Below, one piece after another: positions 12,473 through 59,200 of a stretch of 59,200 nucleotides of DNA. The DNA is taken from positions 1-59,200 of the forward strand of contig JAXDBQ010000020.1 in the NCBI GenBank assembly GCA_034678605.1, in the 5' to 3' direction. A program made the translations under genes and the position numbers. The notes under the pieces were generated by a model. The model was not told the origin of the DNA. It searched no databases and was given only the letters and a program-made list of their open reading frames with translations. Numbering within the stretch: the first letter of the stretch is position 1; every line of letters begins with the position of its first letter. Source of the DNA: Patescibacteria group bacterium (lineage in GTDB: Bacteria > Patescibacteriota > Minisyncoccia > Minisyncoccales > UBA5738).

Positions 12473-14488
<2,016 letters not shown>

Positions 14489-28021: not shown

Positions 28022-29122
28022 CTATGAATTGATTATAAATCTTTTTTCCAAATCTTTCAAGGTTTGCTCCAAATCGGTATATTTTAATTCGCCCATGCCC
28101 AGCATCGCCGGCCCAAAAAACCCCTGGCGCCGGATATCCTGCGCTTTTTGCGCGATTTGCGTCCGAATCAGATCCCAATAGGGTTGATCGAAGCAATCAA
28201 CCGCTTCGGTCAATTTGCCGCGATGAACGCTATAGGCCGCGGCGCTCACGATGGGCGGCCCGTCAAAAAACGATACTCCCGTGCCAAGTTTCACCGGCAG
28301 AAGCGGTCCATGGTGCGAGCCGCGCATAAAACCCGCCACCAAATGGCCGATCGAATACGGCGACAAAATTTCGCCCGACCCGGGAAATTCCTTTTGCGTG
28401 CGCGCGATCAGCACCGGATCATCCTTGCCCACATATTTTCCCGCGATATTGTGCAAGCGTGTAGTGCTGGCCGCCGCCGCTTGCTCACCAGTCGCCCGCG
28501 ACCAAATTCCGGCCACGCCAAACCGCTCCTGGTCGCGCAACAACACGGCCAGATCATAGATTTCTTCGGGCGATTTTAGATCGATCGTCTTTTCGCCGTC
28601 AACGCAATCCATGTCCATAATTCGAAACACATAACCTTGCCGGATCTTAGACGAGATCACCAAGCCCGAATTGTGCATCGGGTCGCAAAACGAAAGATAC
28701 AGCGGCAGATTGAACGCTCCCGGATCGGTTTTGTCGGCGGCGATCATTAAAAATGATTCGTTTTCCCGTTCTTCGAATTCCATTTCGGCCACCGCCGGCC
28801 CAAGACCCTTGCAAGTTCCCTTGAATTCAAGATTAAGCAGATCTTGCCCCGCGCCATACAACCCCTGGTCCTTGGCAACCTTCATCCCCGCGATAAACGC
28901 GTCCCAGCACAACCGATGCACCTTTTCATTGCCCGCGCCCAAGGCGTGCGTCATTAAAATCGCAATATCGTCGCCGGTAAAACTTATCCGCCAATCGATC
29001 AAAACGCCTTTGCTTTTAGACTTAACATGATCAGACACCGCTTCCAAAAGAGCCGCCGACGGCTTGATGTGCCCGCCGATCGCTCCCAGATCGGCCTTGA
29101 TCACGCTGATGGTAATTTTCAT
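28022..29122 (-). CDS. fbp: Bifunctional fructose-1,6-bisphosphate aldolase/phosphatase (class V, archaeal type)
   Basis: ISVIKADLGAIGGH, GDDIAILMTH, GLYGAGQDLL, ADKTDPGAFN, YVGKDDP (Schiff-base Lys), MRGSHHGPL. Confidence 0.93.
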   Translation of the reverse strand: MKITISVIKADLGAIGGHIKPSAALLEAVSDHVKSKSKGVLIDWRISFTGDDIAILMTHALGAGNEKVHRLCWDAFIAGMKVAKDQGLYGAGQDLLNLEFKGTCKGLGPAVAEMEFEERENESFLMIAADKTDPGAFNLPLYLSFCDPMHNSGLVISSKIRQGYVFRIMDMDCVDGEKTIDLKSPEEIYDLAVLLRDQERFGVAGIWSRATGEQAAAASTTRLHNIAGKYVGKDDPVLIARTQKEFPGSGEILSPYSIGHLVAGFMRGSHHGPLLPVKLGTGVSFFDGPPIVSAAAYSVHRGKLTEAVDCFDQPYWDLIRTQIAQKAQDIRRQGFFGPAMLGMGELKYTDLEQTLKDLEKRFIINS

Positions 29123-29189: not shown

Positions 29190-29240
29190 TTATTTAATCG
29201 CCGCCAGCTGTTTTTGCAGTTCAAAAGTGAGCTGGATCAA
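29190..29240 (-). pseudogene. Orphan surface-protein C-terminal tail A (LIQLTFELQKQLAAIK*)
   Basis: Shares GAACTGCAAAAACAGCTGGCGGC (23 nt) with the end of 30705-33125; overlaps the AbiEii stop codon. Confidence 0.85.
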
Positions 29241-30013
29241 AATTGGAATGATTCGATATACGCTCTAAACATCGTGATTTTCTTGGCGTCCGCGCCGTTA
29301 ATAATAAACGGCGCCGCGTCTTTGGCCAATTCGTTAAAATTTAAATTTTTGGTTTTTGAAAGCAAGGTGTCTTTCAATTGTTTGCCGTTTTCAATCCCCA
29401 ATTTGGCGGATAAATATTGGTAGTTTGGCGGCGTGAGCGGTAAAAGGAAAACGATATCAAAAAAATCCCGCCCTTTGGCTCGTTTCCGGTTCAGCGCCGC
29501 GTAAATTTTTTGCGCCAGCGACAAGTCAATCGGCGCGACATTTACTTGGGTAAAAACATCAAATTTGTTAATGATCTTTAAGTCCTTTTTATAATCAAAA
29601 GCGTGCGGAACCGTGTCAACCTGGATCATAATTTTTTCCTCGCGCAAATCCGATAAATTATTATCAAATAAAATTTCGGGCATTTTGATGTAAGAACGAT
29701 ACGCTCCTTTGAAAACATTTTTGATTTCCACTTTGCAACCCTGGGCCTCCAACCCTCGCTTTATGCAATCCGCCAGCAAGGAAAAATCTTTTTCGTTGAT
29801 GCCGAAATCATCAAAATCCAAATCTTCGGAAAACCGGCTGTTGCCGTAAATCAGGCGCAAGGCCGTGCCGCCCAAAAACGCAAGCTTTTTGCCTTGCGGC
29901 GAATCAAAAACGATCTCCAATATTTTACATTGCAGATATTCCCTCAAAATGTTACGCTTGAAAACTCTTTCCGGCGGGGAATAATATTTTTCGATGTTAG
30001 ACAAACCAAGCAT
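29237..30013 (-). CDS. AbiEii-like nucleotidyltransferase toxin (type IV TA)
   Basis: LAFLGGTALRLIYGNSRFSEDLDF, KGRDFFDI. Confidence 0.92.
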   Translation of the reverse strand: MLGLSNIEKYYSPPERVFKRNILREYLQCKILEIVFDSPQGKKLAFLGGTALRLIYGNSRFSEDLDFDDFGINEKDFSLLADCIKRGLEAQGCKVEIKNVFKGAYRSYIKMPEILFDNNLSDLREEKIMIQVDTVPHAFDYKKDLKIINKFDVFTQVNVAPIDLSLAQKIYAALNRKRAKGRDFFDIVFLLPLTPPNYQYLSAKLGIENGKQLKDTLLSKTKNLNFNELAKDAAPFIINGADAKKITMFRAYIESFQF

Positions 30014-30620
30014 TGGTGTATTTCATTAAATTGCCGACCCGCTTGTTCAAAGATTTATTTTTGAAAGCCGCCAAAAATTTTTCCAATTTTTTTGTATCGG
30101 CTTTTTCTTTAAATCCAAGCGCGTTAAACCGCATACCGTCAAAATCAACGGCGTCTTTTATACCGGGATTTAAATAAAGATAATCAAGCGCCGCCTTTTC
30201 CATTTGCGCGATGGCATAATTTTGGCCGCGACACTCGCCCAAACCATAACCGAACATCAATTCCGGCTTGATATGCTTATAGATAAAATTTCCCACCGGC
30301 GTTTGAAAATTAGCGGTTTTGCGCGAAGTAACGCAAGTAATTCCATAAACCGCTTCGGGAATTAGATTATGCCAAGACAACGACATTTCCAGGGAAACAT
30401 ATGATGGCGCATAGATTTTATTGGCAATCAAAAACAAAGTTTTTTCATCAATCTGCAAATCGGAAAAAACATAATACCCTTGCCGTATTTTTTTGATATA
30501 TCCTTTTTTTTGCCATTCGCTCAATCTTTGATTGTGAAAAGACGGATCGATTTTTTCAATACCATTGATTGAAAAAACAATAAAATCCTTTAATTCGGTT
30601 TTAAGGTCAATATATTGCAT
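29997..30620 (-). CDS. AbiEi-like antitoxin / wHTH transcriptional regulator
   Basis: IKKIRQGYY, IYAPSYVSLEMSLSWHNLIPE, EKAALDYLY; overlaps the toxin start. Confidence 0.88.
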   Translation of the reverse strand: MQYIDLKTELKDFIVFSINGIEKIDPSFHNQRLSEWQKKGYIKKIRQGYYVFSDLQIDEKTLFLIANKIYAPSYVSLEMSLSWHNLIPEAVYGITCVTSRKTANFQTPVGNFIYKHIKPELMFGYGLGECRGQNYAIAQMEKAALDYLYLNPGIKDAVDFDGMRFNALGFKEKADTKKLEKFLAAFKNKSLNKRVGNLMKYTNAWFV

Positions 30621-30704
30621 TTTATTCTAATTTATTCCGTTTTTTAGGAATCCTTAAGAATATTATCCCAATTTTGCAACAATTTTGCAAGCCAAATTGT
30701 TATT

Positions 30705-33125
30705 TTAATTGATTTTTTGCATTGCCGCCAGCTGTTTTTGCAGTTCGGTAATTAGCTGGATAATTAATTGGATAAGCAGTTTTTTAATTTCGGCAATCTT
30801 AGCCAAAATCTCGGCCCGGGTGAGTTTATGCGGCTGTGGTTCGATCGTACCGCCACCCCCTCCTCCACCGCCCCCGCCAGAAGACACACAGGCATTGTCG
30901 CGACAGGTCTTGTTTTCCGCGGCGCAATTTTGCGCCAAGCTTTCTTTGGCGTTGCAGGAATTGTACCAATACAAATTGTTGCTGTCGCATTTCTTGGACG
31001 CATGAGATGTACAACTTGATGTACATTGGCCGGCAGAGCAAGTTTTGCCGCCGGCGCAACTGCCGCAATTAATCGTGGCACCGCAACCATCGCTCCAGTC
31101 CCCGCAATGGTAATTGCCCAAGGTAGCGCAGGTTTTGGCCGCGCAAACCGGGTTATTGACGCAACTTCCATTCTGGCAAGTTTGGTTTGCGCCGCATTTG
31201 GAATTGTCATCCTGCCAACCGGTGCCGTCATCAAGGCAAACCTTACACCCGGAAACTTGGTTAGGCGCGCAGATAATTTTTTGCAATTGCGAAGCCAATT
31301 GGATCTCAGCATTAGCTTTTCCGCCGCCGGAACTGATAAATTTAGAAAGACCGACAAGGCAATGTCCTTTCTCCAATACAATATTAGGAAAAGATTTGTT
31401 GATCGGAACTTGGACGGCGGTCTGCCCATGTCCTTGGAATTGCGCGGAATAAATTTTAACGGCATCGGAAGGTATCAACGCGTAATAATTCTTAACAACC
31501 GCATCTTCTCCTTGCCCGCCTTGATAGCCATTTTGGAATGCGGAACAATTTTTGAATATGTATCCATCGGCAAACGCGGTCCAATCGCTTTCAATGTCAG
31601 TATAGGCGGCAATGCTTATATTACCGTTCATCCCAAATAAACGGACACTATTTTGGGTTTGACTTGGGCCAACATACATTACCGACTGATCATTCCTGCT
31701 AGCCAAAGGAAAAATATACTCATAACCAAAACCTTCGATAAACGGCGAATTAGCCGCATCATTAATCAGATTGCTTTCATATATTAGCGAAACCCGGCTT
31801 TCCAAAATGGCTTCTGATGAACCAAATCCGCCATCTAAAAGAAGATAAATACATTGACTCTTGGTGTCGAACGGAATTTTTTTGTCAAAACGAAAATCAA
31901 CCGGCGCGCTGACGGTTCCTGCGACAAATGTTTTTAGAATATAATTCGCTAAATTTTTCATTTGAGGATATGCGGCGGCAAGGGACGGCCAGTCAGGATA
32001 AATTTTATTTTGAGGGCAAGGCCCGGGAATAATACCGATACTATTAAGCGACATATCAAGCTGCGGCTTGTTCTTCGCGGTAAAAAACAGCGACCCGGAA
32101 AAACCCAAAATATTGATATTTTTTTCATTTGCCGGAAAAGGAAAAAAATACATTCTCTTTTCGTAATGAGACTTATCCGCAATCGCAACAGCGCTAATGC
32201 TTAATCTTTTTTCCGTAATATTGGCGGAAACACATTTGCCTTTTTCGCAAACTTGGCCGGAGGTGCAATTGATAACAGCCGACAATTCAAAACATCCATC
32301 CCCATCGTTGTCACTACAATTTTGATAACTCTTATCATCAAAACATTGGGAGACTTGGGAAGCGCATTCGCTTTGGCAACCGGGGTAGCGATATTCCATT
32401 TTTTTTGACCCAATCAGTATTTTTCCTCCAAAAGGAAAATTGCCGGCATAAGCGTAAACAGTATGGGCAGCGCCATCGTTAAATTGATCGGGTAACTCCC
32501 AATTAAACCCATGCCAAGCATGCCCGCCACAAACATTTCCCACGCCGGGATCTGTTCGTAGGCTATTCGCAACCACGCTCCCCATTGATCTTTGGTTCTC
32601 AATCGGACCGTCGTAAAAATATATAGTCAAAGGTTTTGAATAATCGTCGGCATCGCAGGCCCAGCCAAAGGCAAAATAATTATTAATGCTATCGAAATAA
32701 CCAATTGGAGATTGGCTGCCGGCACATTGCATTGTTTTTTGGCCATTACTTAACAACGGATTCGATCCTGCGGGCGTATTGATCGCGTAAGCGTAGATAT
32801 TGTGGCTTTGGCCGTCTTTTAAAAAATCCGGGGTAGGCATGGCAAACCCGTGCGCCGGTTTGCCGCCGCACAAATCACCTACCGCAGTTTCGCGGGCGAT
32901 GTTGGCAACCGCTGAACCGGCCCATCTGCCAACACCAGCCTCGCCGTCGTAATAAAAATGCACTTCCAGCGATTTTGAATAATCGTCGGCGTCGCATGTC
33001 CAGCCGTAGATAGAATCGCAGCCGGCATAATCAAGATAACCGACCGGCACTTCATTGGCAGAAGAAACTCCCGGCAACGCCAACACGCAAGCAAATAATG
33101 ATAACAAAATAATTGACTTTTTCAT
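30705..33125 (-). CDS. Secreted modular Cys-rich surface protein 1 (806 aa)
   Basis: Signal peptide, two GYxDx...GWxCDADD Ig-like repeats, AT-rich central domain, Cys-rich repeats, poly-Gly, C-terminal TRAEILAKIAEIKKLLIQLIIQLITELQKQLAAM helix. Confidence 0.9.
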   Translation of the reverse strand: MKKSIILLSLFACVLALPGVSSANEVPVGYLDYAGCDSIYGWTCDADDYSKSLEVHFYYDGEAGVGRWAGSAVANIARETAVGDLCGGKPAHGFAMPTPDFLKDGQSHNIYAYAINTPAGSNPLLSNGQKTMQCAGSQSPIGYFDSINNYFAFGWACDADDYSKPLTIYFYDGPIENQRSMGSVVANSLRTDPGVGNVCGGHAWHGFNWELPDQFNDGAAHTVYAYAGNFPFGGKILIGSKKMEYRYPGCQSECASQVSQCFDDKSYQNCSDNDGDGCFELSAVINCTSGQVCEKGKCVSANITEKRLSISAVAIADKSHYEKRMYFFPFPANEKNINILGFSGSLFFTAKNKPQLDMSLNSIGIIPGPCPQNKIYPDWPSLAAAYPQMKNLANYILKTFVAGTVSAPVDFRFDKKIPFDTKSQCIYLLLDGGFGSSEAILESRVSLIYESNLINDAANSPFIEGFGYEYIFPLASRNDQSVMYVGPSQTQNSVRLFGMNGNISIAAYTDIESDWTAFADGYIFKNCSAFQNGYQGGQGEDAVVKNYYALIPSDAVKIYSAQFQGHGQTAVQVPINKSFPNIVLEKGHCLVGLSKFISSGGGKANAEIQLASQLQKIICAPNQVSGCKVCLDDGTGWQDDNSKCGANQTCQNGSCVNNPVCAAKTCATLGNYHCGDWSDGCGATINCGSCAGGKTCSAGQCTSSCTSHASKKCDSNNLYWYNSCNAKESLAQNCAAENKTCRDNACVSSGGGGGGGGGGTIEPQPHKLTRAEILAKIAEIKKLLIQLIIQLITELQKQLAAMQKIN

Positions 33126-33196
33126 TTTTGAAAATTATTGATTATTGTATTTTAGCACAAAATCCGGCATACGCACGCCGGATTTTGCACCTTTGA

Positions 33197-36100
33197 TTAT
33201 TTCGGCATTGCCGCAAGCTGCTTTTGCAGCTCGGCGATGAGCTGAATGATGAGCTGGACCAATAATTGCTTGATCTGGGCGATCTTAGCCAAAATTTCAC
33301 CGCGGTTGATCTTTCCTTGACTCGCCGAAGCTTCACGCGAAGGCGGCTGCGGCTCGATCATTCCGCCACCGCCGCCTCCTCCACCACCTCCGCCGGATTG
33401 CGCAATACACTGGCCATTGGAACAGGTTTTGCCCGCGGCGCAGCTGCCGCAGTTGATGGTTTTGCCGCAGCCGTCATTGGCATCGCCGCACTGAAAGCCG
33501 ATATTGGCGCAGGTGTTGGGCTGGCAGGTTGCGGCGCAAACGCCGTTGGCGCAGATCTTGTTGCTGTTAGCACAGTTGGTCGTGTTGTCCCATTGCGAGG
33601 TTTCAAAGCAGGCATTGTTGGCGCAGCCCTTCTTTAAAGTTTTTCGCTGGATCCAGGTTGACGAGCATTGGTAATTATCGGTGGTTTGGTCAATACCGCA
33701 GTTTTGCGCCAGTTCTTCTTTGGTGTTGCAAGAATTGTACCAGTAGAGATTGCCATTGTCGCATTTCTTTGACGCGTGGCTTGAGCAATTGGAAACGCAT
33801 TTGCCCGTCGAGCAAGTTTGGTTTGGAGGGCACGCGCCACAATTAATTGTTTTGCCGCAACCGTCAGGCCAATCCCCGCACTGGTAGTTGCCCAACCCGG
33901 CGCAGGTTTTGGCAACGCAGTTTGTTTGGCATTGGCCGGAAACGCAAGTTTGGCCGGTAGAGCAAGATCCGCAGCTCAATGTTTTGCCGCAACCGTCGGA
34001 AACGCTGCCGCATTTATAGCCCTGGGAATCACAGGTTTTGGCAACGCAAGTTGCCACGCAATTACCGCTGTTGCAAGCCGTGCCGGCAGCGCACGCGGTT
34101 GTTGCGCCCCATTTTAAACAGCCGCCGGACAACGCGCAGGTTTGGTAACCGTTGCCGCTACACTGCTTGGCGCCGACCAAACTGCAGGTGGACGCGCAAG
34201 TTGCCACGCATTGGCCGGCCGAGCAAGTTTGATTGCTGCCGCACGTGCCGCAATTAATGGTCTTGCCGCAACCGTCGCTCCAATCGCCGCACTGGTAATT
34301 GCCCAAGGTAGTACAGGTTTTGGCAACGCAAGCCGGGTTATTGACGCAAGTCCCATTCTGGCAAGTTTGATTTGCGCCGCATTTGGAATTGTCATCTTGC
34401 CAGGCGCTGCCGTCTGCCTTGCAAAATTTGCAACCGGAAACAACACCGGGAACACAAACAGTTCTCAATATTGATAACGAGCCGGTAACTTTGCCGCCTC
34501 CGGAAACTTCGGTTCTTTCCATTGAGGTGGTAAAAGAATTGGCGAAATTGATTTGGGCGCCGCTGCCGATGGAACTGTACATATACTTGCCCGGGGCCGG
34601 TTCCAGAACGCAATTTGTGCAATTAACTTTTGAATTTTGGGCAACCAGAGAATTATTGGCGGATTTGAGGCGGGTGCCATTAATGGTGACATTGGAATTC
34701 ACGGCATTAACCGCGATATAATCAGAAATGCTGCCGCCGTTAAATGTAACCCGGGGCGTACTGTTTTTAATATATACGCCGCCCGGAAAAATTGAGTTGG
34801 AAGATGAGTTGCCGGTGATTGAATTTATGTTTATTGTGATCGGTTTTGGGTTTTGCACCAATAACGGCAATTTAACTTCATTGGCGATAGCAAAAAGTAT
34901 GCAATGCGAAGACGCGCCATTCTGATTATTTCTGTCGGCGGCATTTATCGTCAAATCGTTGATGGTTATCCCGCCGCCACCCCGATGAGTGCCCCAGCTG
35001 GACGTAAGATGGCCGTTTTTAATGGTCAAACCATCAATAATAATGTCCAAATCATGGTCGCCGACATTTATAATGGTCATCCCCGTCCCGCAAAAATCTT
35101 CATTCAAAGAATCGTATTCTGATTTTAAATCGCTTGCCCGTATTTTTTGCACATTGTCAAAAGTTATCGCTTCCCAAAAATTATTGCGGTTTTGAAGATT
35201 ATGCATATAACCATACGCCTCCCAATTGCCGGCGTAATCGCCGTGAGCGCCGCCGGCACCATTGCCCCAATAAATTCCTTGGTCCGCTGAGTTTATCAAT
35301 TCCAAATTGAAAAATTTTCCCCCGCTTCTCCTGCCGCCGGTAAGCACCAATCCCGCGCCGTCAACAAATAAATCGGTTTGGTTATTTCTATTGCCGTCAA
35401 AAGTCATGTTGGCCAAGGTTAACGCTGAATAGCTTGCCCCGTAATATTCATAGCCGGTGGCATAAAAAATCAATGCCGGATGCCCGTAATAGTGTTGATT
35501 ATTGCCAAGCTTTAAAATAGTTTTCCCCATGCCGGCGCCATAAATATGCATATTTTTCCCTTCAAGCGAGAACACCGTATAAAAATTAGCAATTTTTTGA
35601 CCCGCGACTAACCCGTCATAAATTCCGGGGCCAATATAAAGCGAGCCGTCGTCAGGCGTGGCCGCGATCGCGGCGCGGATAACCTGGGTGTAATTGGACC
35701 CGGAAGAGATAACTCCGCCGTTTTTGTTTTTTGCCGTGGCGATGTTGCCGCTTTTTGAAACGGTGACATCAAAGGTAGCGGGAATCGGCGGCGTGCCCGT
35801 GATACAACCGCCATCAACGCAAACTTGGCCTTTGCCGCATTGGGTTGAGTCATCGGCCCACTTCATGGTCAACGGCCGGCAGATTTTGCAGCCTTGCGTC
35901 TGGCCGGCGATGTCGCAATCGTATTTGTCTTTTTTCCCGGTGAAAGGATTTGGATTGGCTTTCCCGTTATATACCGCCTTTATATCGTTTTCCGTTAACG
36001 CGCGGGAATAGACGCGGACATCGTCAATTAAGCCATTGGCCAGCCAATCGTGATTCATTCCAATTTCGCTGCAAATGCCGATACTTAGCGGTAAATTTTC

Positions 36101-37276
36101 GTGATTTCTTGGGTTTCCCTCATAAGTCGTTTTCCCTTGCAAAACGCCGTCAACATAAAACGCGGCGGTTTTCGCGTTTGTATCAACCGTAGCCGCCAAA
36201 TGATGCCATTGGCCGACGTCATAGGTGGCTAAAGAAGAAACTCCGAAAAATCGGTCATCGGCAGTGTATGATCCAAAATGAAACCGGCGATCGCTGGCAA
36301 AATTAATATTAGTATGAAAACCCGGCTTGCAAATTATTGCCTGTCGGCTGTGGTATTCGTTTTGATCATATACCGGGATACTGGCCGGGTTATACCATGC
36401 CGACCAAGTATAGCTATGTTCAGTAATATCTTTCAATGTCGGTGAAACCACCGCTTCCAGAGAATTATTGCCGGTAAATTTTAACGCCTTGCCGAATTTT
36501 CCCGCCGCAAGTGTCGGGCAAGGATCCGACAAATTGCAAATCTGATGGTTCCCAAATCCGGACCAATCCTTGAACAAGAGCGATGATTCGCCGTTTTCGC
36601 CGTCAAACTTCCACCAGCCGACCAAGCCATCGTTATAATTCCCCGAAGATAAAACGCAAGATCCATCCAAGCAAATTTTTCCGCCGGCGCATTTTGAATC
36701 ATCATCTTGCCACACAGAACCGTCGGAGTTGCAAACCTTGCAACCCAAAACCGCGCCCGGAACACAAGTTGCGTAATTGGCGCATTTTTCAATTTTCACC
36801 GAATTGCTCGATCCCTTCACGACGCGGTATAAACTTCCGCCGATAGCGGCTTGATTGGGCATATTCCCCGAGAAATAAGTGGAGCCGGTATTTTGCCACT
36901 CGGTCCAATTTTTAGAAGATTGGTATATTCTTTTCCAAAGCATATCATCGCCGCCAATGCCCGAGGCCGTTATCTTGCCATCCGCGCCTAATACCAGATT
37001 TGGGCCGGTGATCAAAACACCGCCCAACGAATACCATTCGTTTTTGCCGGTTTGAGGGTTGTATTCGTTGATCCATAATGCGTCATCCGTACCCACGGCC
37101 GCGATGACTAATTTCGTATCACTATCCGCATAGATCGCCGGCTTATATTTGATGATGCCCCCGATATCGGCAAAGCTTGACCAATTTTGGCAATCGGCGG
37201 CTAACGCCTGGATTGCAATACATTGAAAAAACAATGTGGAAACAAACAATGAAAATAGAATGATTCGTTTTTTCAT
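33197..37276 (-). CDS. Secreted modular Cys-rich surface protein 2 (1359 aa): propeller-like repeat, LamG, beta-helix
   Basis: Signal peptide; AAVGTDDALW/WYSLGG repeat; GLVGWWKFD...VGQWHHLAAT...GLIDDVRVYSRAL (LamG/ConA); pectin-lyase-like beta-helix; many CVAKTC...CG modules; same C-terminal helix. Confidence 0.92.
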   Translation of the reverse strand: MKKRIILFSLFVSTLFFQCIAIQALAADCQNWSSFADIGGIIKYKPAIYADSDTKLVIAAVGTDDALWINEYNPQTGKNEWYSLGGVLITGPNLVLGADGKITASGIGGDDMLWKRIYQSSKNWTEWQNTGSTYFSGNMPNQAAIGGSLYRVVKGSSNSVKIEKCANYATCVPGAVLGCKVCNSDGSVWQDDDSKCAGGKICLDGSCVLSSGNYNDGLVGWWKFDGENGESSLLFKDWSGFGNHQICNLSDPCPTLAAGKFGKALKFTGNNSLEAVVSPTLKDITEHSYTWSAWYNPASIPVYDQNEYHSRQAIICKPGFHTNINFASDRRFHFGSYTADDRFFGVSSLATYDVGQWHHLAATVDTNAKTAAFYVDGVLQGKTTYEGNPRNHENLPLSIGICSEIGMNHDWLANGLIDDVRVYSRALTENDIKAVYNGKANPNPFTGKKDKYDCDIAGQTQGCKICRPLTMKWADDSTQCGKGQVCVDGGCITGTPPIPATFDVTVSKSGNIATAKNKNGGVISSGSNYTQVIRAAIAATPDDGSLYIGPGIYDGLVAGQKIANFYTVFSLEGKNMHIYGAGMGKTILKLGNNQHYYGHPALIFYATGYEYYGASYSALTLANMTFDGNRNNQTDLFVDGAGLVLTGGRRSGGKFFNLELINSADQGIYWGNGAGGAHGDYAGNWEAYGYMHNLQNRNNFWEAITFDNVQKIRASDLKSEYDSLNEDFCGTGMTIINVGDHDLDIIIDGLTIKNGHLTSSWGTHRGGGGITINDLTINAADRNNQNGASSHCILFAIANEVKLPLLVQNPKPITININSITGNSSSNSIFPGGVYIKNSTPRVTFNGGSISDYIAVNAVNSNVTINGTRLKSANNSLVAQNSKVNCTNCVLEPAPGKYMYSSIGSGAQINFANSFTTSMERTEVSGGGKVTGSLSILRTVCVPGVVSGCKFCKADGSAWQDDNSKCGANQTCQNGTCVNNPACVAKTCTTLGNYQCGDWSDGCGKTINCGTCGSNQTCSAGQCVATCASTCSLVGAKQCSGNGYQTCALSGGCLKWGATTACAAGTACNSGNCVATCVAKTCDSQGYKCGSVSDGCGKTLSCGSCSTGQTCVSGQCQTNCVAKTCAGLGNYQCGDWPDGCGKTINCGACPPNQTCSTGKCVSNCSSHASKKCDNGNLYWYNSCNTKEELAQNCGIDQTTDNYQCSSTWIQRKTLKKGCANNACFETSQWDNTTNCANSNKICANGVCAATCQPNTCANIGFQCGDANDGCGKTINCGSCAAGKTCSNGQCIAQSGGGGGGGGGGGMIEPQPPSREASASQGKINRGEILAKIAQIKQLLVQLIIQLIAELQKQLAAMPK

Positions 37277-37347
37277 TTTAAAAAATTATTGATTGTTTTA
37301 TTTTAACACAAAATCCGGCAAATCAATGCCAGGCTTGGCGTTTGCGA

Positions 37348-37395
37348 TTATTTTGGCAGAGCTACAAGCTGCTTTTGCAGCTCGGCGATAAGCTG
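37348..37395 (-). pseudogene. Orphan surface-protein C-terminal tail B (QLIAELQKQLVALPK*)
   Basis: Shares ATCGCCGAGCTGCAAAAGCAGCTTG (25 nt) with the end of 33197-37276; 23 nt after the TA toxin stop. Confidence 0.88.
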
Positions 37396-37418
37396 GGCGG
37401 TCAAAAAATCGGCAACCG

Positions 37419-38078
37419 TCATATAAAAATCCGGTTTTTCAATTTTCGCGCCTCATCAACAAAATAGTTCTGCCAATCGCGCCGATTAATCTTTATTTTC
37501 ATCCTCGGAAAATCTTTAACTTCTTTTGCCTGCGTAAATTGGCTGCCGAGCTGCAAAAGGTCAATATGGGTATCAAATTTGATCCTTGCTTTTTTGATCA
37601 AATCATCAATTTTAAACCCAAATTTTTGACGCAAGCAAAAAATATCGATAAAATCGCGGCTTCGGGGTTTTTGATAAATGGTAAAAACTTTATTGACGGC
37701 AATGTCCAGCGCGCTGTCAATCCGCAAATCGCCAATCTCTAAATATTCGCCAACCGCCGAAAACGGGAAATAAGTGAATTCGGTTTTCACGATATCGGCG
37801 CCAAAATCAACAAAAAACAAATTACGGTTAAAACTTTGTTGAAAATCAATTTTTGCAAAACCAAGATTATTTTTGTTTTTTGCCAAAAAAGCGCTGATCA
37901 CCTGCGGATCAACCTCGTTTTCCGAGAAAAAATCAAGATCCTCGGATATCCGATGATGCAAATAAAATTCGGCCAAAGCCGTGCCGCCGCCAAGATAAAA
38001 CGCGCGGCAAATTTCTTTGTCGCCGCAAATCGCGTTCAATAAATTTGTTTGGTTTTGCGTCAATATCGTTTTGGCCAT
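37419..38078 (-). CDS. AbiEii-like nucleotidyltransferase (DUF1814-type) toxin
   Basis: FYLGGGTALAEFYLHHRISEDLDFF, DIAVNK, RSRDFIDI. Confidence 0.9.
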   Translation of the reverse strand: MAKTILTQNQTNLLNAICGDKEICRAFYLGGGTALAEFYLHHRISEDLDFFSENEVDPQVISAFLAKNKNNLGFAKIDFQQSFNRNLFFVDFGADIVKTEFTYFPFSAVGEYLEIGDLRIDSALDIAVNKVFTIYQKPRSRDFIDIFCLRQKFGFKIDDLIKKARIKFDTHIDLLQLGSQFTQAKEVKDFPRMKIKINRRDWQNYFVDEARKLKNRIFI

Positions 38079-38263
38079 AACAACTTTGCGAGAAACTTTT
38101 TCTTTTTCGGATCAAGGTAAAGCTTGCGCCAGTATTTCTTTAAATCACGGGAATTTATTTTTTTTCCGTCCAAACCGAAATTAACCATCTGCTCCAAACG
38201 CCAAATGGCATATTTTTCTTTGTCTTTTTTTAATTCTGCCGTATCAACCGACCAATTTTTCAT
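38060..38263 (-). CDS. Small partner/antitoxin of the adjacent nucleotidyltransferase (DUF6922-like)
   Basis: 67 aa, NWSVD...WRLEQMVNFG...LDPKKKKFL; overlaps the toxin start; TGgTACAAT promoter-like sequence upstream. Confidence 0.75.
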   Translation of the reverse strand: MKNWSVDTAELKKDKEKYAIWRLEQMVNFGLDGKKINSRDLKKYWRKLYLDPKKKKFLAKLLWPKRY

Positions 38264-38322
38264 AAGTTAATTGTACCATTTTTCCCGCCAAAAATCCAGC
38301 TGATTTTGCGGCATTTTGCAAT

Positions 38323-40533
38323 TTACTTGTTCTGGATGCCTGCCAGCTGCTTTTGCAGCTCGGTAATGAGCTGGATGATCAATTGGATCAATAATTGCTT
38401 GATTTCGGCGATCTTTTGCAGGATCTCCTCGCGGGTCATAGGTTGTTGGGGTTCGGTGGTGCCGCCACCGCCGCCGCCGGAGCCGCCGCCGGAACCGGAT
38501 GAAACACATTGGCCGCTGGAATTGCATTTTTTGCCGGATTCGCACGCGCCGCAATTGATCGTGGCGCCGCAGCCATCGTTCCAATCACCGCATTGATAAT
38601 TGCCCAGCGTAGCGCAGGTTTTGGGAGTACAAATATCAGCAATGCATTTTTTAATTTCGGCACTACCGTCATTTTTTTTAATCGCTTTATAGGTTATCCC
38701 GTTAATTACGCCAGCATCAGAACCGCCAACGCTTATGTTTGCCGATGGCAAACCGATGGCTTTCCATTTAGTCCAATTTTTAGATGACATAAAAATGAGG
38801 GTCCACCCACCGCCATCATCTCCCGAGGCCGAAAGGCTTATTTTTTTATCAATTGTTTTGGCCAAACTCGGCCGTGATAACAACACTCCGCCCAGCGAAT
38901 ACCATTCGCCTTTTTTATTTCCCGGATCGTATTCATTAATCCATAAAGCATTATCGGTGCCCACGGCCGCGATAATCAATTTACCATTTGATTCCATTAA
39001 CGAAGGTTCGAATTTTGAAAATCCGCCGATATTATCCCAAAGTTCTGAATTGAGGCATAGATCAACACACCGGCCGGATGAGCAAGTTTTTCCGCTCGCG
39101 CACACGCCGCAGTTGATCGTCGAGCCGCAACCATTATCGGTATTCCCGCACTCATAATTCAAAAATGAGCATGTTTTGGCGTTGCAACCAGCTACGCAAC
39201 TGTTTTCGCAAAATGGAGCAATCGCCGCCTCAACTTTTTCAAACGGCAAATCAAGCCAACCGTCGGCTTGCTTCATTATATGATTATCAATATCAAAATA
39301 TATCAACGCATCACCTTTGCCTTTGTAAAAAGACGCGGCCGCCGGTTCATTCGTCCAAATATATACTTTTGCCGATGGAAATTTGCCGACAACTTGGGTG
39401 GCAAAATCTTCATATGAAAAATTAATCGTATCGCCATTTTTGTCTTTATATTGCTCCCATCCGATAAAATCCGGATCTGCGCCTTCGTTGCGAAACTCAA
39501 CATAATATTTCACCAACGATTCAACAATTCCAACCGCAACCGAAGGATTTGCCTGTTTTATATATTCTTTTAATTGGTTAAATTCCGCTCCGGATAATCC
39601 GGTACTTTCTGGTTGGCCCGCGGCAAAACGAGCCTTGAATTCATCTAACGCGATAACATCGACTCCGCGCCGCAACAACTCTTTACACTCTTCAACCCAA
39701 CCGCAATGCCCCATCACTTTAAATCCCTTTTTATGCGCGCTATTTATATTTGCGGTTGTCTGTCCCCCTGGCATGCTGCCTGAAATTCCAGTAAAATTAT
39801 CAGACATTTTATTAATATAATCCAAAAATTCTTGCTCAACTGCCCTATAGTCCAAATTATACGGAAAAAATCCCGCAAATATTTCAAGTTTCCTGCTACT
39901 ATCTTTACATACGCCATTATCGCAAACCTGGGTTTTGGCGCATTTTAAACTATAATCGCGCCATGCATCGCCGGTTATATCGCAAATTTTACAACCCAAA
40001 AATGACCCCGGAACGCAAAGTTGCGGCACGCATTTTTGAATTAATAATGAATTGCCGGAACTTTTTACGATTCTATATAATAATCCATTTGAGGTTGCTT
40101 CTTTGGGCCCGATGCCGGCAAAACCGCTTGTCCCCGCGACCTGCCATTCGGTCCAGCTTTTTGCTGCTGAATAATTTCTTTGCCAAATTGTAAAATTATC
40201 GCCGCCGATGCCCGAAAATCTGATTTTGCCGTCCGCGCCTTTGACCAAATTCGGGCCGGATGTTAGAACGCCGCCAAGAGAATACCATTCATTTTGATTG
40301 GTTTGCGGATTAAATTCGTTGATCCACAAGGAATCATCCGTGCCCACGGCCGCAATAATCAGTTTGTCATCCGCGCTTGCCGCAATTGCCGGATCATATT
40401 TAATTACGCCGCCGATATTGGCAACCGCCGTCCAATTTTGGCAATCCGCGGCAAAGACATTGTCCGCGCCAACCACAAAAAACATACCGCAAATTAGTAT
40501 CGCCAGAAATAACGGAACATTGATTTCCCTCAT
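38323..40533 (-). CDS. Secreted modular Cys-rich surface protein 3 (about 736 aa)
   Basis: Start at MREINV; two copies of the AAVGTD..LW/WYSLGG module; AT-rich central domain resembling a glycoside-hydrolase barrel (VDVIALDE, PDFIGWEQY); poly-Gly; same C-terminal helix. Confidence 0.88.
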   Translation of the reverse strand: MREINVPLFLAILICGMFFVVGADNVFAADCQNWTAVANIGGVIKYDPAIAASADDKLIIAAVGTDDSLWINEFNPQTNQNEWYSLGGVLTSGPNLVKGADGKIRFSGIGGDNFTIWQRNYSAAKSWTEWQVAGTSGFAGIGPKEATSNGLLYRIVKSSGNSLLIQKCVPQLCVPGSFLGCKICDITGDAWRDYSLKCAKTQVCDNGVCKDSSRKLEIFAGFFPYNLDYRAVEQEFLDYINKMSDNFTGISGSMPGGQTTANINSAHKKGFKVMGHCGWVEECKELLRRGVDVIALDEFKARFAAGQPESTGLSGAEFNQLKEYIKQANPSVAVGIVESLVKYYVEFRNEGADPDFIGWEQYKDKNGDTINFSYEDFATQVVGKFPSAKVYIWTNEPAAASFYKGKGDALIYFDIDNHIMKQADGWLDLPFEKVEAAIAPFCENSCVAGCNAKTCSFLNYECGNTDNGCGSTINCGVCASGKTCSSGRCVDLCLNSELWDNIGGFSKFEPSLMESNGKLIIAAVGTDNALWINEYDPGNKKGEWYSLGGVLLSRPSLAKTIDKKISLSASGDDGGGWTLIFMSSKNWTKWKAIGLPSANISVGGSDAGVINGITYKAIKKNDGSAEIKKCIADICTPKTCATLGNYQCGDWNDGCGATINCGACESGKKCNSSGQCVSSGSGGGSGGGGGGTTEPQQPMTREEILQKIAEIKQLLIQLIIQLITELQKQLAGIQNK

Positions 40534-40550
40534 AAATTTTCCGATACGAA

Positions 40551-41012
40551 TTATTCGCAAGCAATGCCCACCGGCCAGATTTCGTGCACCATTTAGCCTT
40601 CCAATTCAAAATCGGCCAGCTTGCCGTAAATCACGACTTTTTTACCGGCGTAATATGACAAATCGTCTTTGGGGGCGTAAATATTGCGGCCGTTTAAGCT
40701 GTAAAGCGACGATCTCATCAGAGTGTCCGCGACGCCCGCATTCACGGCGTTTTTATTTAATATTCCCAAAAATTGAGTTTCGGCGGTATTTAAGGAGTTG
40801 TAGCTGTCGATAAAGCCTTTGTCGTTATTCAAGGTTTTTTTGTTCTTGTCGGCGCAAGCGGTTTGACTGCAATCTTTCGGACAACTAATACTATTTTCAC
40901 CGGAATTTTTATTGCAAACGCCATCGCCGCATTTTGCGCATCCAGAACATTATCACCGTCAAAAAACAACAACACCGCAAGAAAAATTACCAAAAATATC
41001 TTTCTGATTTTT
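40551..41012 (-). pseudogene. Degraded secreted Cys-rich protein gene
   Basis: Leader like that of the 1359-aa gene but no ATG; signal peptide KIRKIFLVIFLAVLLFF out of frame with CGDGVCNKNSGENSISCPKDC; in-frame TAA at 40593-40595 followed by MVHEIWPVGIACE*. Confidence 0.65.
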
Positions 41013-41035
41013 AAAAAACTATTGATTGTTTTATT

Positions 41036-41083
41036 TTAATTGGTTTTGGGCATTGCCGCCAGCTGCTTTTGCAGTTCGGCGAT
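41036..41083 (-). pseudogene. Orphan surface-protein C-terminal tail C (IAELQKQLAAMPKTN*)
   Basis: Matches the ends of proteins 1 and 2; starts 9 nt after the pfkB stop. Confidence 0.88.
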
Positions 41084-41092
41084 TCAACGATT

Positions 41093-42088
41093 CTACAATT
41101 CAACGTTTCTAATTTTAATTTTGATGTTTTCTTGGCCCACAAGATAGTTGTCTTCTTTGGCCAAAAGTTTGTCGGAACCGCGGATCGATAGGCAATGCTT
41201 GGCGTTCACCAGCGCCAATTTCATCGAATATTCGATATCGTTGTTCGAAGAAAGCATCCCGCTCATAAAGCCCGAAGCGAACGCGTCGCCCGCGCCGGTA
41301 ACGTCGATTATTTTAAAGGCCTTGGCCTTGCCTTCATAAACCTTGCCCTCGGCAATGATCAGCGCGCCCTCTTTTCCCTTGGTGATCACATTGATGCCCG
41401 GGTGCATATACACGATCTTTTTAATGATCGCTTTTTCATCTTTGTAATCAATGCCAGTTAATGTCGCGGCTTCTTCCAAATTCAAGATCAACACGTCGAT
41501 GCGCGCCAGCAAGCCCTTGATACACGCCCGGCCCATGGCTAATTGGGAATTGCCCAAATTGGCCGCCACCATCACATTGTTCTTACGGGCGAATGCCGTG
41601 ATTTGCTCGGTCAAACGGCACAACCGGCCCGAAAGCGGCGCCAGATAGAACAATTTGGCATTCATTTTGTCCCATTGCACGCACTCATGGCCAAAAAGCT
41701 CGGATGCGCCCCGATAAACCAAGATCACCCGGTCTTCGCCGGCGGCATTGAGCACCACGGAATTATTCGTCGCCCGCTCTTTGGTTTTGCAGATCAATTC
41801 CGTGCCAACGCCCAGCCGCTTCAAATGCTCGGCCACTTCGCGGCCGGGAATATCGTCGCCCACCATGCCGCAATAGGCAGTTTTAAAACCTTGCCGCGCG
41901 AAAGTTGTGGCCGTGTTGACCCCCCCGCCGCCAAACGCAAACCGCATCTGCGGCACATCGATCTTGGAGCCCATGTTGAATTCAAACCCCCGCCCCGAGA
42001 TCATCTTGGCGTCTTTTTTCACAAATTTTGGCGGCATGTCCATAAACGCGTCCCACGCCGCGCTCCCGAAAGTGATTACATCGTACAT
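41093..42088 (-). CDS. PfkB/ribokinase-family carbohydrate kinase
   Basis: FGGGGVNTA, GMVGDDIPG, ITKGKEGA, DVTGAGDAFASG. Confidence 0.92.
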   Translation of the reverse strand: MYDVITFGSAAWDAFMDMPPKFVKKDAKMISGRGFEFNMGSKIDVPQMRFAFGGGGVNTATTFARQGFKTAYCGMVGDDIPGREVAEHLKRLGVGTELICKTKERATNNSVVLNAAGEDRVILVYRGASELFGHECVQWDKMNAKLFYLAPLSGRLCRLTEQITAFARKNNVMVAANLGNSQLAMGRACIKGLLARIDVLILNLEEAATLTGIDYKDEKAIIKKIVYMHPGINVITKGKEGALIIAEGKVYEGKAKAFKIIDVTGAGDAFASGFMSGMLSSNNDIEYSMKLALVNAKHCLSIRGSDKLLAKEDNYLVGQENIKIKIRNVEL

Positions 42089-42660: not shown

Positions 42661-43218
42661 TTATTTGCTTTCCAATTTCAAATATTCGATCTCGCTTCTG
42701 ATGTCTTCAAAAAAGATATGATGCGATTTATGGATTTCCCATGCGACATTCCTTTCGAAACAAGCGAAAATCAACCGCTTTCCGTTGAGAATAACATCTT
42801 TTTTCAATCCAATAAAGTCGCTATCGCTGCTCACAAGCAGCACCGCGTCAATTTTATCCAAACTTCTTATCGCGGCGCAAGTAATTTCCACATCAAAATT
42901 GCATTTATATTTGAATTTAGATTTGGCGCTGTCCAAATAAATCTTTTTAAGCAGCTTTTCGATAATTTCAAAACCCGATTTTTCAATTCTGTCTTTGATC
43001 AATACATTTTTATCATAAGCGGCTTTCTCCAGCGGCATTCCCAAATAATACTTTGCGAATTTTACATTAAAATGCTTCTGGCAAAATATTAAGAACTTGC
43101 CCCAATCGATCCGCCAACCCGCGCTTTTCTGCGAATAAAACAAATTCGCCTCGTCAACAAAAATCCCAACACATTTCCCTTTATATTCGTCTAAAATTTT
43201 GTTAGCTTTGAAATTCAT
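42661..43218 (-). CDS. NYN (LabA/DUF88, PIN-like) domain RNase
   Basis: IFVDEANLFY, KCNFDVEI, LVSSDSDF, FFEDI. Confidence 0.9.
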   Translation of the reverse strand: MNFKANKILDEYKGKCVGIFVDEANLFYSQKSAGWRIDWGKFLIFCQKHFNVKFAKYYLGMPLEKAAYDKNVLIKDRIEKSGFEIIEKLLKKIYLDSAKSKFKYKCNFDVEITCAAIRSLDKIDAVLLVSSDSDFIGLKKDVILNGKRLIFACFERNVAWEIHKSHHIFFEDIRSEIEYLKLESK

Positions 43219-47005: not shown

Positions 47006-47707
47006 CTATTTTAATTCCATTAACTTTTTCATTATTCGCGGCACTTCATTCACGAAATATTTTTTGACTTCCAACCAATCAGCTTTAAAATTTATTTCCG
47101 GGCCAGAATCCACCTCCGCGTCTTCAAAATACTCCATGCTTAGCAAAATATGATGATAGTCGTGCGCAACGCTGGGGTATTGTTTTTTTAATCGCTTGAT
47201 CGTATTTTCCAGCGGCTCCACATTTTTCGCGCACCAATAAAGATCGAAAAAATCACGCTTACGGCCGCGTTGCGAAATGGCGATGATTTTCATTACTGCA
47301 ATGTCCCGCGCGGATAAAATATTGATTACGCCATGCTTAATGAAATCTTCTGCCGGTATAAAAAACGGATAAGCGATAAAACTCACTTTCGCGCCAAACA
47401 ATTCGCCATAAATTGTGTTTTCTTCATCAAGATTTGTTTTCCAATCCGGAATATCATAAAATTTATCCAAAATTTTTTTTGTGTCGAATTTTCGTTCCAC
47501 CGTAAAAAAATCCAAGTCATATGATTGGCGATGGCCAGCCTGCAACGCCAAAGCCGTGCCACCCGCCAAATACCAGCCGTTATCTTTTAACCAATCTTGA
47601 GACGACAAAAATTCAAACGCTTTTTTTGTTTGCGCGGGCATTATGTCAAAATTCAATAATTTTCCAGAAGCAGTTTCCATGCGTTTTTTGTGCGCGGACG
47701 AAGGCAC
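47006..47707 (-). CDS. AbiEii-like nucleotidyltransferase toxin (true start probably 47680 or 47641)
   Basis: WYLAGGTALALQAGHRQSYDLDFF, DIAVMK, RGRKRDFFDLY. Confidence 0.9.
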   Translation of the reverse strand: MPSSAHKKRMETASGKLLNFDIMPAQTKKAFEFLSSQDWLKDNGWYLAGGTALALQAGHRQSYDLDFFTVERKFDTKKILDKFYDIPDWKTNLDEENTIYGELFGAKVSFIAYPFFIPAEDFIKHGVINILSARDIAVMKIIAISQRGRKRDFFDLYWCAKNVEPLENTIKRLKKQYPSVAHDYHHILLSMEYFEDAEVDSGPEINFKADWLEVKKYFVNEVPRIMKKLMELK

Positions 47708-58663: not shown

Positions 58664-59200
58664 TTAATTAGCCGCCATCAATTGGTTTATTTTCGCCCGC
58701 GTGTCGTTGCCCACGTTTCCCGAACCGGCCGTCAATCCATAGGGCGTCAAAATTTGGGCGGCATACTTCAATTGCAATTGGGACACGGCCGCTTTGGTGG
58801 CCTGATCGTAAAATCCGTTCGAAACCACCGCGTAACCCTGCGTCTTCAAAAAGTCCTGCAAACAATAAACCTCCGGATCGCTGATTCCAAAATACAAATA
58901 TTTTGTGAGTCGATTACAAATAGTTCCGGGAAAGCTTCCCGTTCCGCCCGCCGTATTGGTCAAGGCCGCCAATTGTTGTTGCAGTTCCGCGATCTTTTGT
59001 TTCAGCAAATTGATCTGGGCCAAAAGATCGGTTGAATCGACATTGGCCGACCCTGATCCGGATCCTGATCCTGATCCCGATCCGCAAGCGGCATTCGAGC
59101 AGGATTCGTTGACGGCGCAAGCCTCGTAAACCTCGCCGCGGTTGCCGCAGGAATCATACCAATAGACATCGCCGTTATAGCATTGCTTGCGGTTTTTAGC
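58664..59200 (-). CDS. Cys-rich surface protein with (GS)n linker, coiled coil and C-terminal peptidoglycan-binding domain; 5'-truncated by window edge
   Basis: Frame is open from 59200: CYNGDVYWYDSCG, GSGSGSGSGSGS, KIAELQQQLAAL, then LYFGISDPEVYCLQDFLK...GFYDQATKAAVSQLQ...GNVGNDTRAKIN (PG_binding_1-like). Confidence 0.88.
   Translation of the reverse strand, partial: AKNRKQCYNGDVYWYDSCGNRGEVYEACAVNESCSNAACGSGSGSGSGSGSANVDSTDLLAQINLLKQKIAELQQQLAALTNTAGGTGSFPGTICNRLTKYLYFGISDPEVYCLQDFLKTQGYAVVSNGFYDQATKAAVSQLQLKYAAQILTPYGLTAGSGNVGNDTRAKINQLMAAN

Follow-up and report, generated by a model that had tools for sequence, protein, structure and literature searches.

A strain-variable array of secreted proteins sharing a C-terminal helix derived from a wall-anchor coil, in a patescibacterium of the UBA5738 lineage

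The DNA analysed here (the window) is a stretch of 59,200 nucleotides, contig 20 of the genome of a Patescibacteria group bacterium of the UBA5738 lineage (Minisyncoccales; GenBank assembly GCA_034678605.1; 1.0 Mb, 99% complete). It contains an island of approximately 12 kb, located between a pfkB gene and a gene for a fructose-1,6-bisphosphatase (FBPase), and every gene of the region lies on the minus strand. The island carries a tandem array of three intact genes, here called A, B and C, and one pseudogene, as an earlier note on this DNA had described and as the gene calls confirm. Gene A (30705–33125) encodes a protein of 806 residues, gene B (33197–37276) one of 1359 residues, and gene C (38323–40533) one of 736 residues from its ATG, or 745 from an upstream TTG. 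The pseudogene (approximately 40593–41012) has kept its leader, its ATG reads ATC, and its signal-peptide frame is followed by a frameshifted Cys-rich body of 114 codons. No gene is called at this position in public contigs, and no intact copy was found in the genome or in the loci retrieved from relatives.

The three proteins have the common plan that the earlier note saw in them. All three start with a Sec-type signal peptide and contain Cys-rich modules (such as C.PKTCA.LGNY.CG.WSDGCG.T.NCG.C), 8–12 consecutive Gly and a terminal helix, ..TRAEIL.KIAEIK.LLIQLIIQLI.ELQKQLA, which is here called the tail. The tail is a C-terminal amphipathic helix of 32–35 residues that follows the flexible Gly-rich linker. 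It is encoded at 30708–30815 in gene A, 33200–33310 in gene B and 38326–38439 in gene C. The remaining domains differ. In protein A the signal peptide is followed by two copies of a Cys-bridged domain of around 110 residues, which is frequent across the family of tail proteins, and then by an orphan β-rich domain, Cys modules, a Gly11 linker and the tail. Protein B consists of the signal peptide, three PLL-lectin blades, a LamG domain, a region of around 430 residues, many Cys modules, the Gly linker and the tail. Protein C has the signal peptide, three PLL blades, an orphan α/β domain, Cys modules, three further PLL blades, the Gly linker and the tail.

Lectin content, which had been suggested earlier, is thus present in the form of PLL blades and LamG. 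Homology to the PLL/PHL propeller lectins of Photorhabdus covers the first 130 or so residues of B and C. In a phmmer search of the PDB both match 5MXE (1.3e-39 for B, 7.4e-28 for C), the PLL blades being all that sequence comparison with the PDB identified, and the Pfam family PF26607 (Beta-prop_PLL) is precomputed on public copies of C. A unit of around 130 residues corresponds to about three blades and is closed by a Cys pair, and C has a second such unit. The PLL units of B and C do not make up a full seven-bladed propeller in a single chain, and the three-blade units of B suggest a need for oligomerisation. The LamG/ConA-like domain of B lies at residues 277–433 (Pfam, 8e-25).

No match in Pfam or the PDB was obtained for the central domains of A and C or for the region of around 430 residues that follows the LamG domain of B. 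A lenient Pfam search with domain pieces of A and C gave nothing, and a word search of 5.8 billion proteins with their central domains returned only the protein itself. Single-sequence AlphaFold2 predictions of the orphan central domains have a pLDDT (predicted local distance difference test) of 40.3 for C and 42.3 for A, and these models are unusable. The payload labels of the earlier note therefore stand in part: LamG is correct, and Ig-like repeats, a β-helix and a barrel like that of glycoside hydrolases find no confirmation in these searches and models. The lower GC content of the central domains, also remarked on there, is real (32–43%, versus 55–64% in the Cys- and Gly-rich ends), and could be explained by amino-acid composition.

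The genome has a fourth tail gene, on contig C4, which encodes a GH16 domain followed by the tail. An alignment of these four tails has 54 positions, of which 20 do not vary. Of the 13 genomes in the genus, nine (counting the source genome) have clear matches to a tail profile (E ≤ 1e-15), with up to 14 per genome and often in tandem; the sister genus has none. Searched against 1.84 billion representative proteins, the profile gives 51 matches, of which 50 end within about five residues of the C-terminus. The sole non-terminal match is an unrelated repeat protein (E 5e-4). All complete tail proteins examined begin with a signal peptide, so that the helix does not behave as a feature of cytoplasmic proteins, an occurrence that the earlier note would have counted against a surface role. 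The tail is thus confined to essentially one genus. The payloads that it follows are diverse. They include GH16, GH5, α-amylase, melibiase, heparinase II/III, WbsX-like and lipase-like (LCAT/PGAP1) domains, as well as a metallo-β-lactamase fold, FG-GAP, NBR1-Ig, PKD and LamG, while a few tail proteins are minimal, at 125–220 residues.

The sequence of the tail is conserved at the level of the protein. Across 28 tails, the proportion of synonymous differences (pS) is 0.74 and that of nonsynonymous differences (pN) is 0.13, and invariant Leu and Ile residues are written with up to six codons. Synonymous divergence around a fixed peptide implies that the identity of the tail is maintained on the protein and not through DNA conversion, and this rules out conservation at the DNA level, or gene conversion, as its cause. 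The variable positions of the helix (7, 10, 14, 17, 21 and 25) form a single, narrow stripe. Some three quarters of the helix circumference, including Q18, Q22, E26, Q28 and Q30, does not change between paralogues or species, and this holds for species whose PfkB proteins are only around 70% identical, and on unrelated payloads. Faces that are fixed in this way point to a common binding partner, or to co-assembly of the family members.

The origin of the tail is suggested by proteins from outside the genus. There, the profile weakly matches helices that lie directly before a PG_binding_1 domain (PF01471) at the C-termini of secreted proteins. An hhalign comparison of 20 tails with five such coil + PG_binding_1 ends gave a probability of 95.4% and an E-value of 2e-8, with a single gap of eight residues opposite LLIQLIIQ. 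The coil + PG_binding_1 module was examined in the source genome and its relatives. Several proteins of the source genome carry it, and one of them lies in the same window: its C-terminal part (58667–59200, minus strand) comprises the last Cys module of the tail family, a Gly/Ser linker, a short coil (DLLAQINLLKQKIAELQQQLAAL) and PG_binding_1. Genome G003, of the same genus, has an architecture of Cys module, GGGG and KMTRAEIIAKINEI... running into a short coil and PG_binding_1. Aligned by eye, two G003 proteins read ..CVSSGGGG...KMTRAEIIAKINEIMALIAKLQAQLKAM-TGQTAYSC.. and continue into PG_binding_1. The G003 coil corresponds to the N-terminal half and the last third of the tail; it lacks the insertion and is followed by the wall-binding domain. 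Proteins A, B and C have no match to PF01471, all matches of the genome being elsewhere, and a stop codon follows 2–7 residues past the tail helix. These alignments show the tail to be a Patescibacteria wall-anchor coil that has lost its PG-binding domain and has been lengthened by two hydrophobic turns (eight residues). Across the nine tail-bearing genomes, the number of tails is inversely related to the number of PG_binding_1 domains (Spearman -0.87, p 0.002), which suggests that the tail replaces PG_binding_1 and does not cooperate with it.

Three further observations concern coils of this type. An open reading frame (ORF) of another family of the order (L018, genome G016, 1237–2664) has a long tail-like coil (LKAKIKEIIKQLIALIQSLIEKLQEQLAEL) that is still followed by PG_binding_1, so that lengthening of the coil and loss of PG_binding_1 are separable events. 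Genome G000 encodes, on contig C39 (124551–126557), a secreted protein of 669 residues made up of a coil at the N-terminus (EELAAQIAALQSQLAGL), PG_binding_1 and a long β-type body rich in Thr and Ser; it is a candidate S-layer-type protein. A protein of G008 that combines M23, PG_binding_1 and a coil was considered as a conserved partner of the tail, and was ruled out because it has no orthologue in the source genome.

The physical character of the helix bears on how it might be attached. It is around 75% hydrophobic, with a conserved stripe of Gln and Glu. Its best 19-residue segment has a mean Kyte-Doolittle hydrophobicity of 1.48, and a simple Hessa sum gives +9 kcal/mol; these values rule out a transmembrane anchor. 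A gentler form of membrane attachment would place the segment LLIQLIIQLI in the outer leaflet of the cytoplasmic membrane, as a peripheral anchor or as an oligomer bundled within the leaflet, with the Gly linker as a tether. The hydrophobic surface (Eisenberg H 0.3–0.46, moment 0.35–0.46), the position at the extreme C-terminus past a flexible linker, and an eight-residue insertion that contributed only hydrophobic residues and Gln would all fit this arrangement. However, the same hydrophobicity values predict no insertion of a span, a basic stop-transfer cluster is absent, and the ancestral coil acts outside the membrane, beside a wall-binding domain. We therefore consider a membrane anchor improbable.

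The constant C-terminal position after a linker, and the occurrence of the tail on many unrelated payloads, are also what one would expect of a sorting signal, at which an enzyme of its own (a sortase, an exosortase or a rhombosortase-like enzyme) would cleave the protein and attach it covalently. An [IV][ED]P motif is indeed frequent 10–15 residues before the helix. What follows it is a polar-striped helix and not a transmembrane segment. None of 20 aligned tails has an LPXTG-like motif with a hydrophobic span and a basic tail, nor is there a PEP-type motif with these features. The known CTERM sorting models are part of NCBIfam, which gave no match to the tail at E ≤ 1, and the homologous coil of the coil + PG_binding_1 proteins is not cleaved. 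A cleaved signal is thus highly improbable, and we rate it lowest of all the explanations discussed here. The earlier note had proposed a sorting or anchoring signal. A surface-related tag still seems an apt description; a new sorting signal with its own enzyme does not, the tail being a wall-anchor coil without PG_binding_1, and anchoring may be part of its role.

The genes of the array are joined by a recurring unit, which the earlier note had recognised. It consists of tail, stop codon, hairpin, TGnTAAAAT, AATCAATAATTTT and ATG, and is found at 33123–33200, at 37274–37395 and in part at 41010–41083; the same unit is present in another species, G009. The junction from B to A (33126–33196) has a hairpin at 33156–33189, the sequence TGTGCTAAAAT at 33149–33159 and a leader, with the ATG at 33125. 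That ahead of gene B (37277–37332) has a hairpin at 37315–37332, an extended -10 element (TGTGTTAAAAT) at 37300–37310 and the leader AATCAATAATTTTTTAAA. These hairpins are terminator-like in appearance. The expression signals of the following gene overlap the preceding tail, and three types of junction are seen. Type 1 has a terminator hairpin and an extended -10 after the tail stop, type 2 has the tail stop codon within TTAAAAT, and type 3 has the next ATG overlapping the tail stop (..GCAACGCAATGA..), as a 4-nt ATGA overlap.

Three orphan tail stubs, two of which the earlier note had missed, lie in the island without a gene of their own. Stub L (IAELQKQLAAMPKTN and a stop codon; 48 nt, 41036–41083) forms the left border of the island, 9 nt past the pfkB stop. 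Stub M (QLIAELQKQLVALPK and a stop codon) lies at 37348–37395. Stub R (IQLTFELQKQLAAIK and a stop codon; 29190–29237) forms the right border. All three are on the minus strand. The heads of the arrays in G009 and G001 have a conserved promoter (TGGTTATAAT), followed by the last 12–16 codons of a tail and then an overlapped start, and G005 has an array-head stub of like kind. The breakpoints of the stubs cluster within about five codons in three species. Since the expression signals of the downstream gene overlap the tail, around 45 nt of it are kept, and the need for these 45 nt accounts for the clustering with no site-specific recombinase invoked. It is worth adding that a conserved non-coding segment of around 200 nt, which contains TGGTTATAAT and a GC-rich hairpin, lies ahead of the head stub in two loci (L056 in G009, contig C9, approximately 14250–14440; L063 in G001, contig C42, approximately 2000–2210). 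This could be a regulated leader.

The island also contains two AbiE toxin-antitoxin cassettes, absent from the earlier note, as was the PLL identity of the N-termini of B and C. The first comprises an AbiEi-like antitoxin of 207 residues (29997–30620; NCBIfam NF047376 at 9e-10, below cut-off), with its own promoter-like site at 30662–30690, and an AbiEii-family toxin of 258 residues (29237–30013; Pfam PF08843 at 3.4e-19), whose TGA stop overlaps the start of stub R. The second comprises a 67-residue ORF (38060–38263) and an AbiEii-family nucleotidyltransferase toxin of 219 residues (37419–38078; PF08843 at 2.8e-15). The small ORF has no family match; it overlaps the AbiEii start, is presumed to be the antitoxin partner, and uses the junction promoter TGGTACAAT that remains after gene C. 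All four genes are on the minus strand. Both toxins score above the PF08843 cut-off, and each is preceded by an overlapping antitoxin or presumed antitoxin gene, the arrangement expected of AbiE, a type IV toxin-antitoxin system.

Both cassettes occupy the positions of family genes, in that they begin just past a junction and end in the middle of a tail, and they probably entered by replacing such genes. Two of the four AbiEii genes of the genome lie within these 12 kb, or 1.2% of the genome, and we estimate the chance of this at roughly 1e-3. The cassettes may stabilise the repeat-rich array. A third AbiEii-family gene of the window (47006–47707) is 30% identical to the 219-residue toxin. A SocA/Panacea pair adjoins the array of G001.

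The content of the locus varies between species. Upstream of the island is the pfkB-family sugar kinase (41093–42088, minus strand; Pfam PfkB at 8e-40), and downstream is the FBPase, of class V (aldolase/phosphatase; 28022–29122, minus strand; Pfam FBPase_3 at 2e-146). In four sister species (G002, G003, G006 and G008) these genes are adjacent, with a spacing of 84–143 bp that holds a plain terminator and promoter and no stub. In G005 they are separated by a 3.5-kb insert on the opposite strand, with genes of a different, pilin-like or fibre-like family. In five further species pfkB and FBPase both lie at contig ends beside this family. The polymorphism that the earlier note inferred for the locus is therefore evident, the site being differently occupied or broken outside the four species. 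The pilin-like or fibre-like family occurs at this spot as 1–3 tandem genes (L045, G005 contig C31, 1191–4370; also L046, L048, L050, L051, L053 and L055). Its members have a hydrophobic N-terminus (MKQTKFAKALALS..), GNVGIGT repeats and a Cys-rich end, ..ALYCVEQ; they have no Pfam match, and the source genome has no copy.

The content also varies between strains. A contig of a metagenome-assembled genome (MAG) at NCBI, CAZKBN010000047.1, matches the window at 99.9% identity across gene C, the AbiEii cassette, the stub and hairpin, and switches at the leader and ATG to a different, A-like gene (MKKTFYIAHIFF..). Sequencing run X9, from another study, shows the same switch to an A-like gene, at 37268. 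In runs X5 and X6 a third gene (MKKLLPVIFI..) begins exactly at 37276, and no gene B is present at a likeness of at least 97%. The switch points before gene B thus fall at 37268–37276, and three different genes follow one and the same junction in strains whose upstream sequence is at least 99.9% identical. These alternative genes support cassette exchange, so that the exchange of payloads at constant junctions, proposed in the earlier note, is seen directly.

Other contig joints connect the tail of C straight to the junction of B, without the toxin-antitoxin cassette, and the pfkB-side stub straight to B. In X8 a longer stub links the AbiE cassette to the pseudogene. The direct joints and X8 come from assembly-graph contigs of mixed communities, and are weaker evidence. 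Excision of the stub-bounded island as a simple circle was considered as the source of the X8 joint, and was rejected: the joint, from 41083 to 29230, contains 13 additional bases completing a longer stub, and so represents another arrangement and not a circle of the present island. An exact-pattern scan of metagenomes for the start of the alternative gene gave nothing, and an exact look-up of the PfkB protein yielded no arrangement but this one, from the source study.

It might be argued from these arrangements that the tail and junction are primarily a DNA site for recombination or mobility, like the attC of integrons, whose translation is incidental. The stubs stand at array borders and at toxin-antitoxin insertions, with breakpoints confined to a few codons in three species, the core GAGCTGCAAAAGCAGCT holds a 6-bp inverted repeat, and genes are swapped at the junctions. 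However, the synonymous sites of the tail are near saturation while its peptide is fixed, and synonymous changes in gene A break the inverted repeat. No recombinase gene is present among the ORFs of the island, which the search for an integrase covered, and stub retention is explained more simply by the stub carrying the next gene's promoter or translation-start context. A DNA site of this kind is accordingly very unlikely to be the main role of the tail, though it may be a secondary one.

The source genome encodes bacterial gyrB and pheST, an [FeFe] hydrogenase, phosphoenolpyruvate synthase and acetyl-CoA synthetase. Tail-carrying relatives are deposited under the names 'Patescibacteria group bacterium UBA5738/UBA6102' and 'Minisyncoccales bacterium', and the records of some are mislabelled as archaea or Saccharibacteria. 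The bacterium is one of anaerobic digesters, and public runs containing the sequence are metagenomes of anaerobic digesters, sludge and wastewater. UBA5738 is the lineage named Candidatus Yanofskyibacteriaceae, reported as parasites of Methanothrix (PMC12281837, PMC10936435), and from the names of the records we infer that the source genome belongs to it. Peptidoglycan-binding domains are mentioned among the expressed proteins of Yanofskyibacterium (PMC10936435). Elsewhere in the window, an NYN-domain (RNase-like) protein is encoded directly upstream of pfkB (42661–43218). The AT-rich segment 22334–24809 (32–33% GC, versus approximately 47% around it) encodes an AAA_15/AAA_21 ATPase of 366 residues, a DUF3226 protein and a T5orf172-domain protein, and looks like a small acquired defence island.

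On the basis of these observations, we propose that the locus is a variable array of secreted glycan-binding and glycan-active proteins, which carry a zipper helix derived from a wall anchor and whose genes are swapped at their junctions. The helix would either bundle members of the family with one another, or dock all of them to one conserved partner on the cell surface. The outcome would be multivalent assemblies of lectins and enzymes, with an effect like that of dockerin tags or of the trimerising necks of collectins, and no covalent sorting step would be involved. Tail and junction together would serve as a portable block of homology. Recombination there, probably homologous recombination, would swap whole payload genes between strains, and would leave tail stubs at the heads of arrays and beside inserted toxin-antitoxin cassettes. 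We regard this reading, taken as a whole, as evenly poised between right and wrong.

Several points weigh against it. The paralogues of this genome are 74–87% identical in DNA, and no recent conversion is seen here. The strain evidence consists of metagenome contigs (Logan and the NCBI MAG), in which branches of the graph prove alternative neighbours and not a mechanism of exchange. No public RNA runs with A or B were found. Among the 51 tail matches, none combines a coil of the tail type with PG_binding_1 or with a membrane anchor, and no partner was identified. Finally, G005 has six tails and no detected PG_binding_1, which counts against docking onto coil + PG_binding_1 proteins specifically, and makes release of soluble oligomers as likely as retention at the surface.

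Soluble release can be put as an explanation in its own right, in which the tail is a module for release and oligomerisation only, and secreted homo-oligomers ('bouquets') diffuse to host cells or to polysaccharide and are not kept on the producer. The loss of PG_binding_1 and its inverse counts would be as expected, as would the tails of G005 and the lack of an anchor partner among the tail matches. The three-blade PLL fragments of B would need oligomers to close a propeller, and small multimeric lectins do close their propeller by oligomerisation. However, a homo-oligomeric coil need not stay near-identical among paralogues with unrelated payloads, or among species as distant as the PfkB comparison indicates, and its fixed polar residues suggest a single common interface. 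We consider release as the only role of the tail unlikely. By our judgement it would nevertheless rank ahead of peripheral membrane binding, and the latter ahead of a cleaved sorting signal.

The proposal of a zipper helix can be taken further, as a form of display, either scaffold-free or through a single receptor, that is peculiar to a methanogen-associated genus within the Candidate Phyla Radiation (CPR). The lengthened coil would be a self-sufficient zipper that replaces peptidoglycan anchoring, and lectins, glycanases and lipases would co-assemble as hetero-oligomeric surface complexes (a 'cellulosome without cohesins'), with tail and junction as the block for swapping and the toxin-antitoxin cassettes holding the array. 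This extension is put forward tentatively, as possible though doubtful. As for what the proteins do, the earlier note had host attachment in mind. Polysaccharide feeding is an equally good reading, because the payloads of the family are as often glycan-degrading enzymes as lectins.

Little is known of how the ultra-small bacteria of the CPR recognise their hosts and exploit them, and the relatives that live as parasites of methanogens are covered only by microscopy and by lists of expressed proteins (PMC12281837, PMC10936435). The tail family is a concrete set of secreted lectins and glycan-active enzymes that varies between strains and can easily be searched for by its one tag. With this tag, partners could be pulled down, the proteins localised, and the surface proteins of the group catalogued. 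The family also illustrates how another device for retention or assembly can arise from a wall anchor, and the swapping of genes at junctions is a clear instance of contingency-type variation in a genome of 1 Mb.

The tail system can be compared with four known ones. The closest is the Patescibacteria coil + PG_binding_1 anchor. The helices are homologous, the same Cys modules, Gly-rich linker and ..MTRAEI.AKI.EI.. lie upstream, and the secreted proteins that bear this module, one of them in the window, are of the same kinds. The tail differs in having no PG-binding domain and an eight-residue hydrophobic insertion, in being near-invariant among paralogues, and in being found in one genus only. 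Cellulosomal dockerins are likewise short, constant C-terminal modules past a linker; they occur on many unrelated binding modules and carbohydrate-active enzymes, and imply a common docking interface. Unlike them, the tail is a single helix with neither the dockerin fold nor duplicated, EF-hand-like Ca-binding repeats; no dockerin family is among the Pfam matches of 31 members of the tail family, and no cohesin-like scaffold was identified. The Photorhabdus PLL/PHL lectins (PDB 5C9O and 5MXE) are clear homologues of the N-terminal modules of B and C, but they are self-contained, seven-bladed propellers, whereas the units in B and C have about three blades closed by Cys pairs and are fused to other domains and the tail. 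Finally, variable surface-protein arrays and integron arrays have constant ends with swappable bodies, and toxin-antitoxin cassettes stabilise integron arrays. The present array resembles them in its tandem genes, constant ends, swappable bodies, strain-specific content and embedded toxin-antitoxin modules. It seems to differ from both in that no integrase, attC or invertase is seen in the island, whose junction hairpins are terminator-like, and in that its constant block is a translated and selected peptide together with expression signals.

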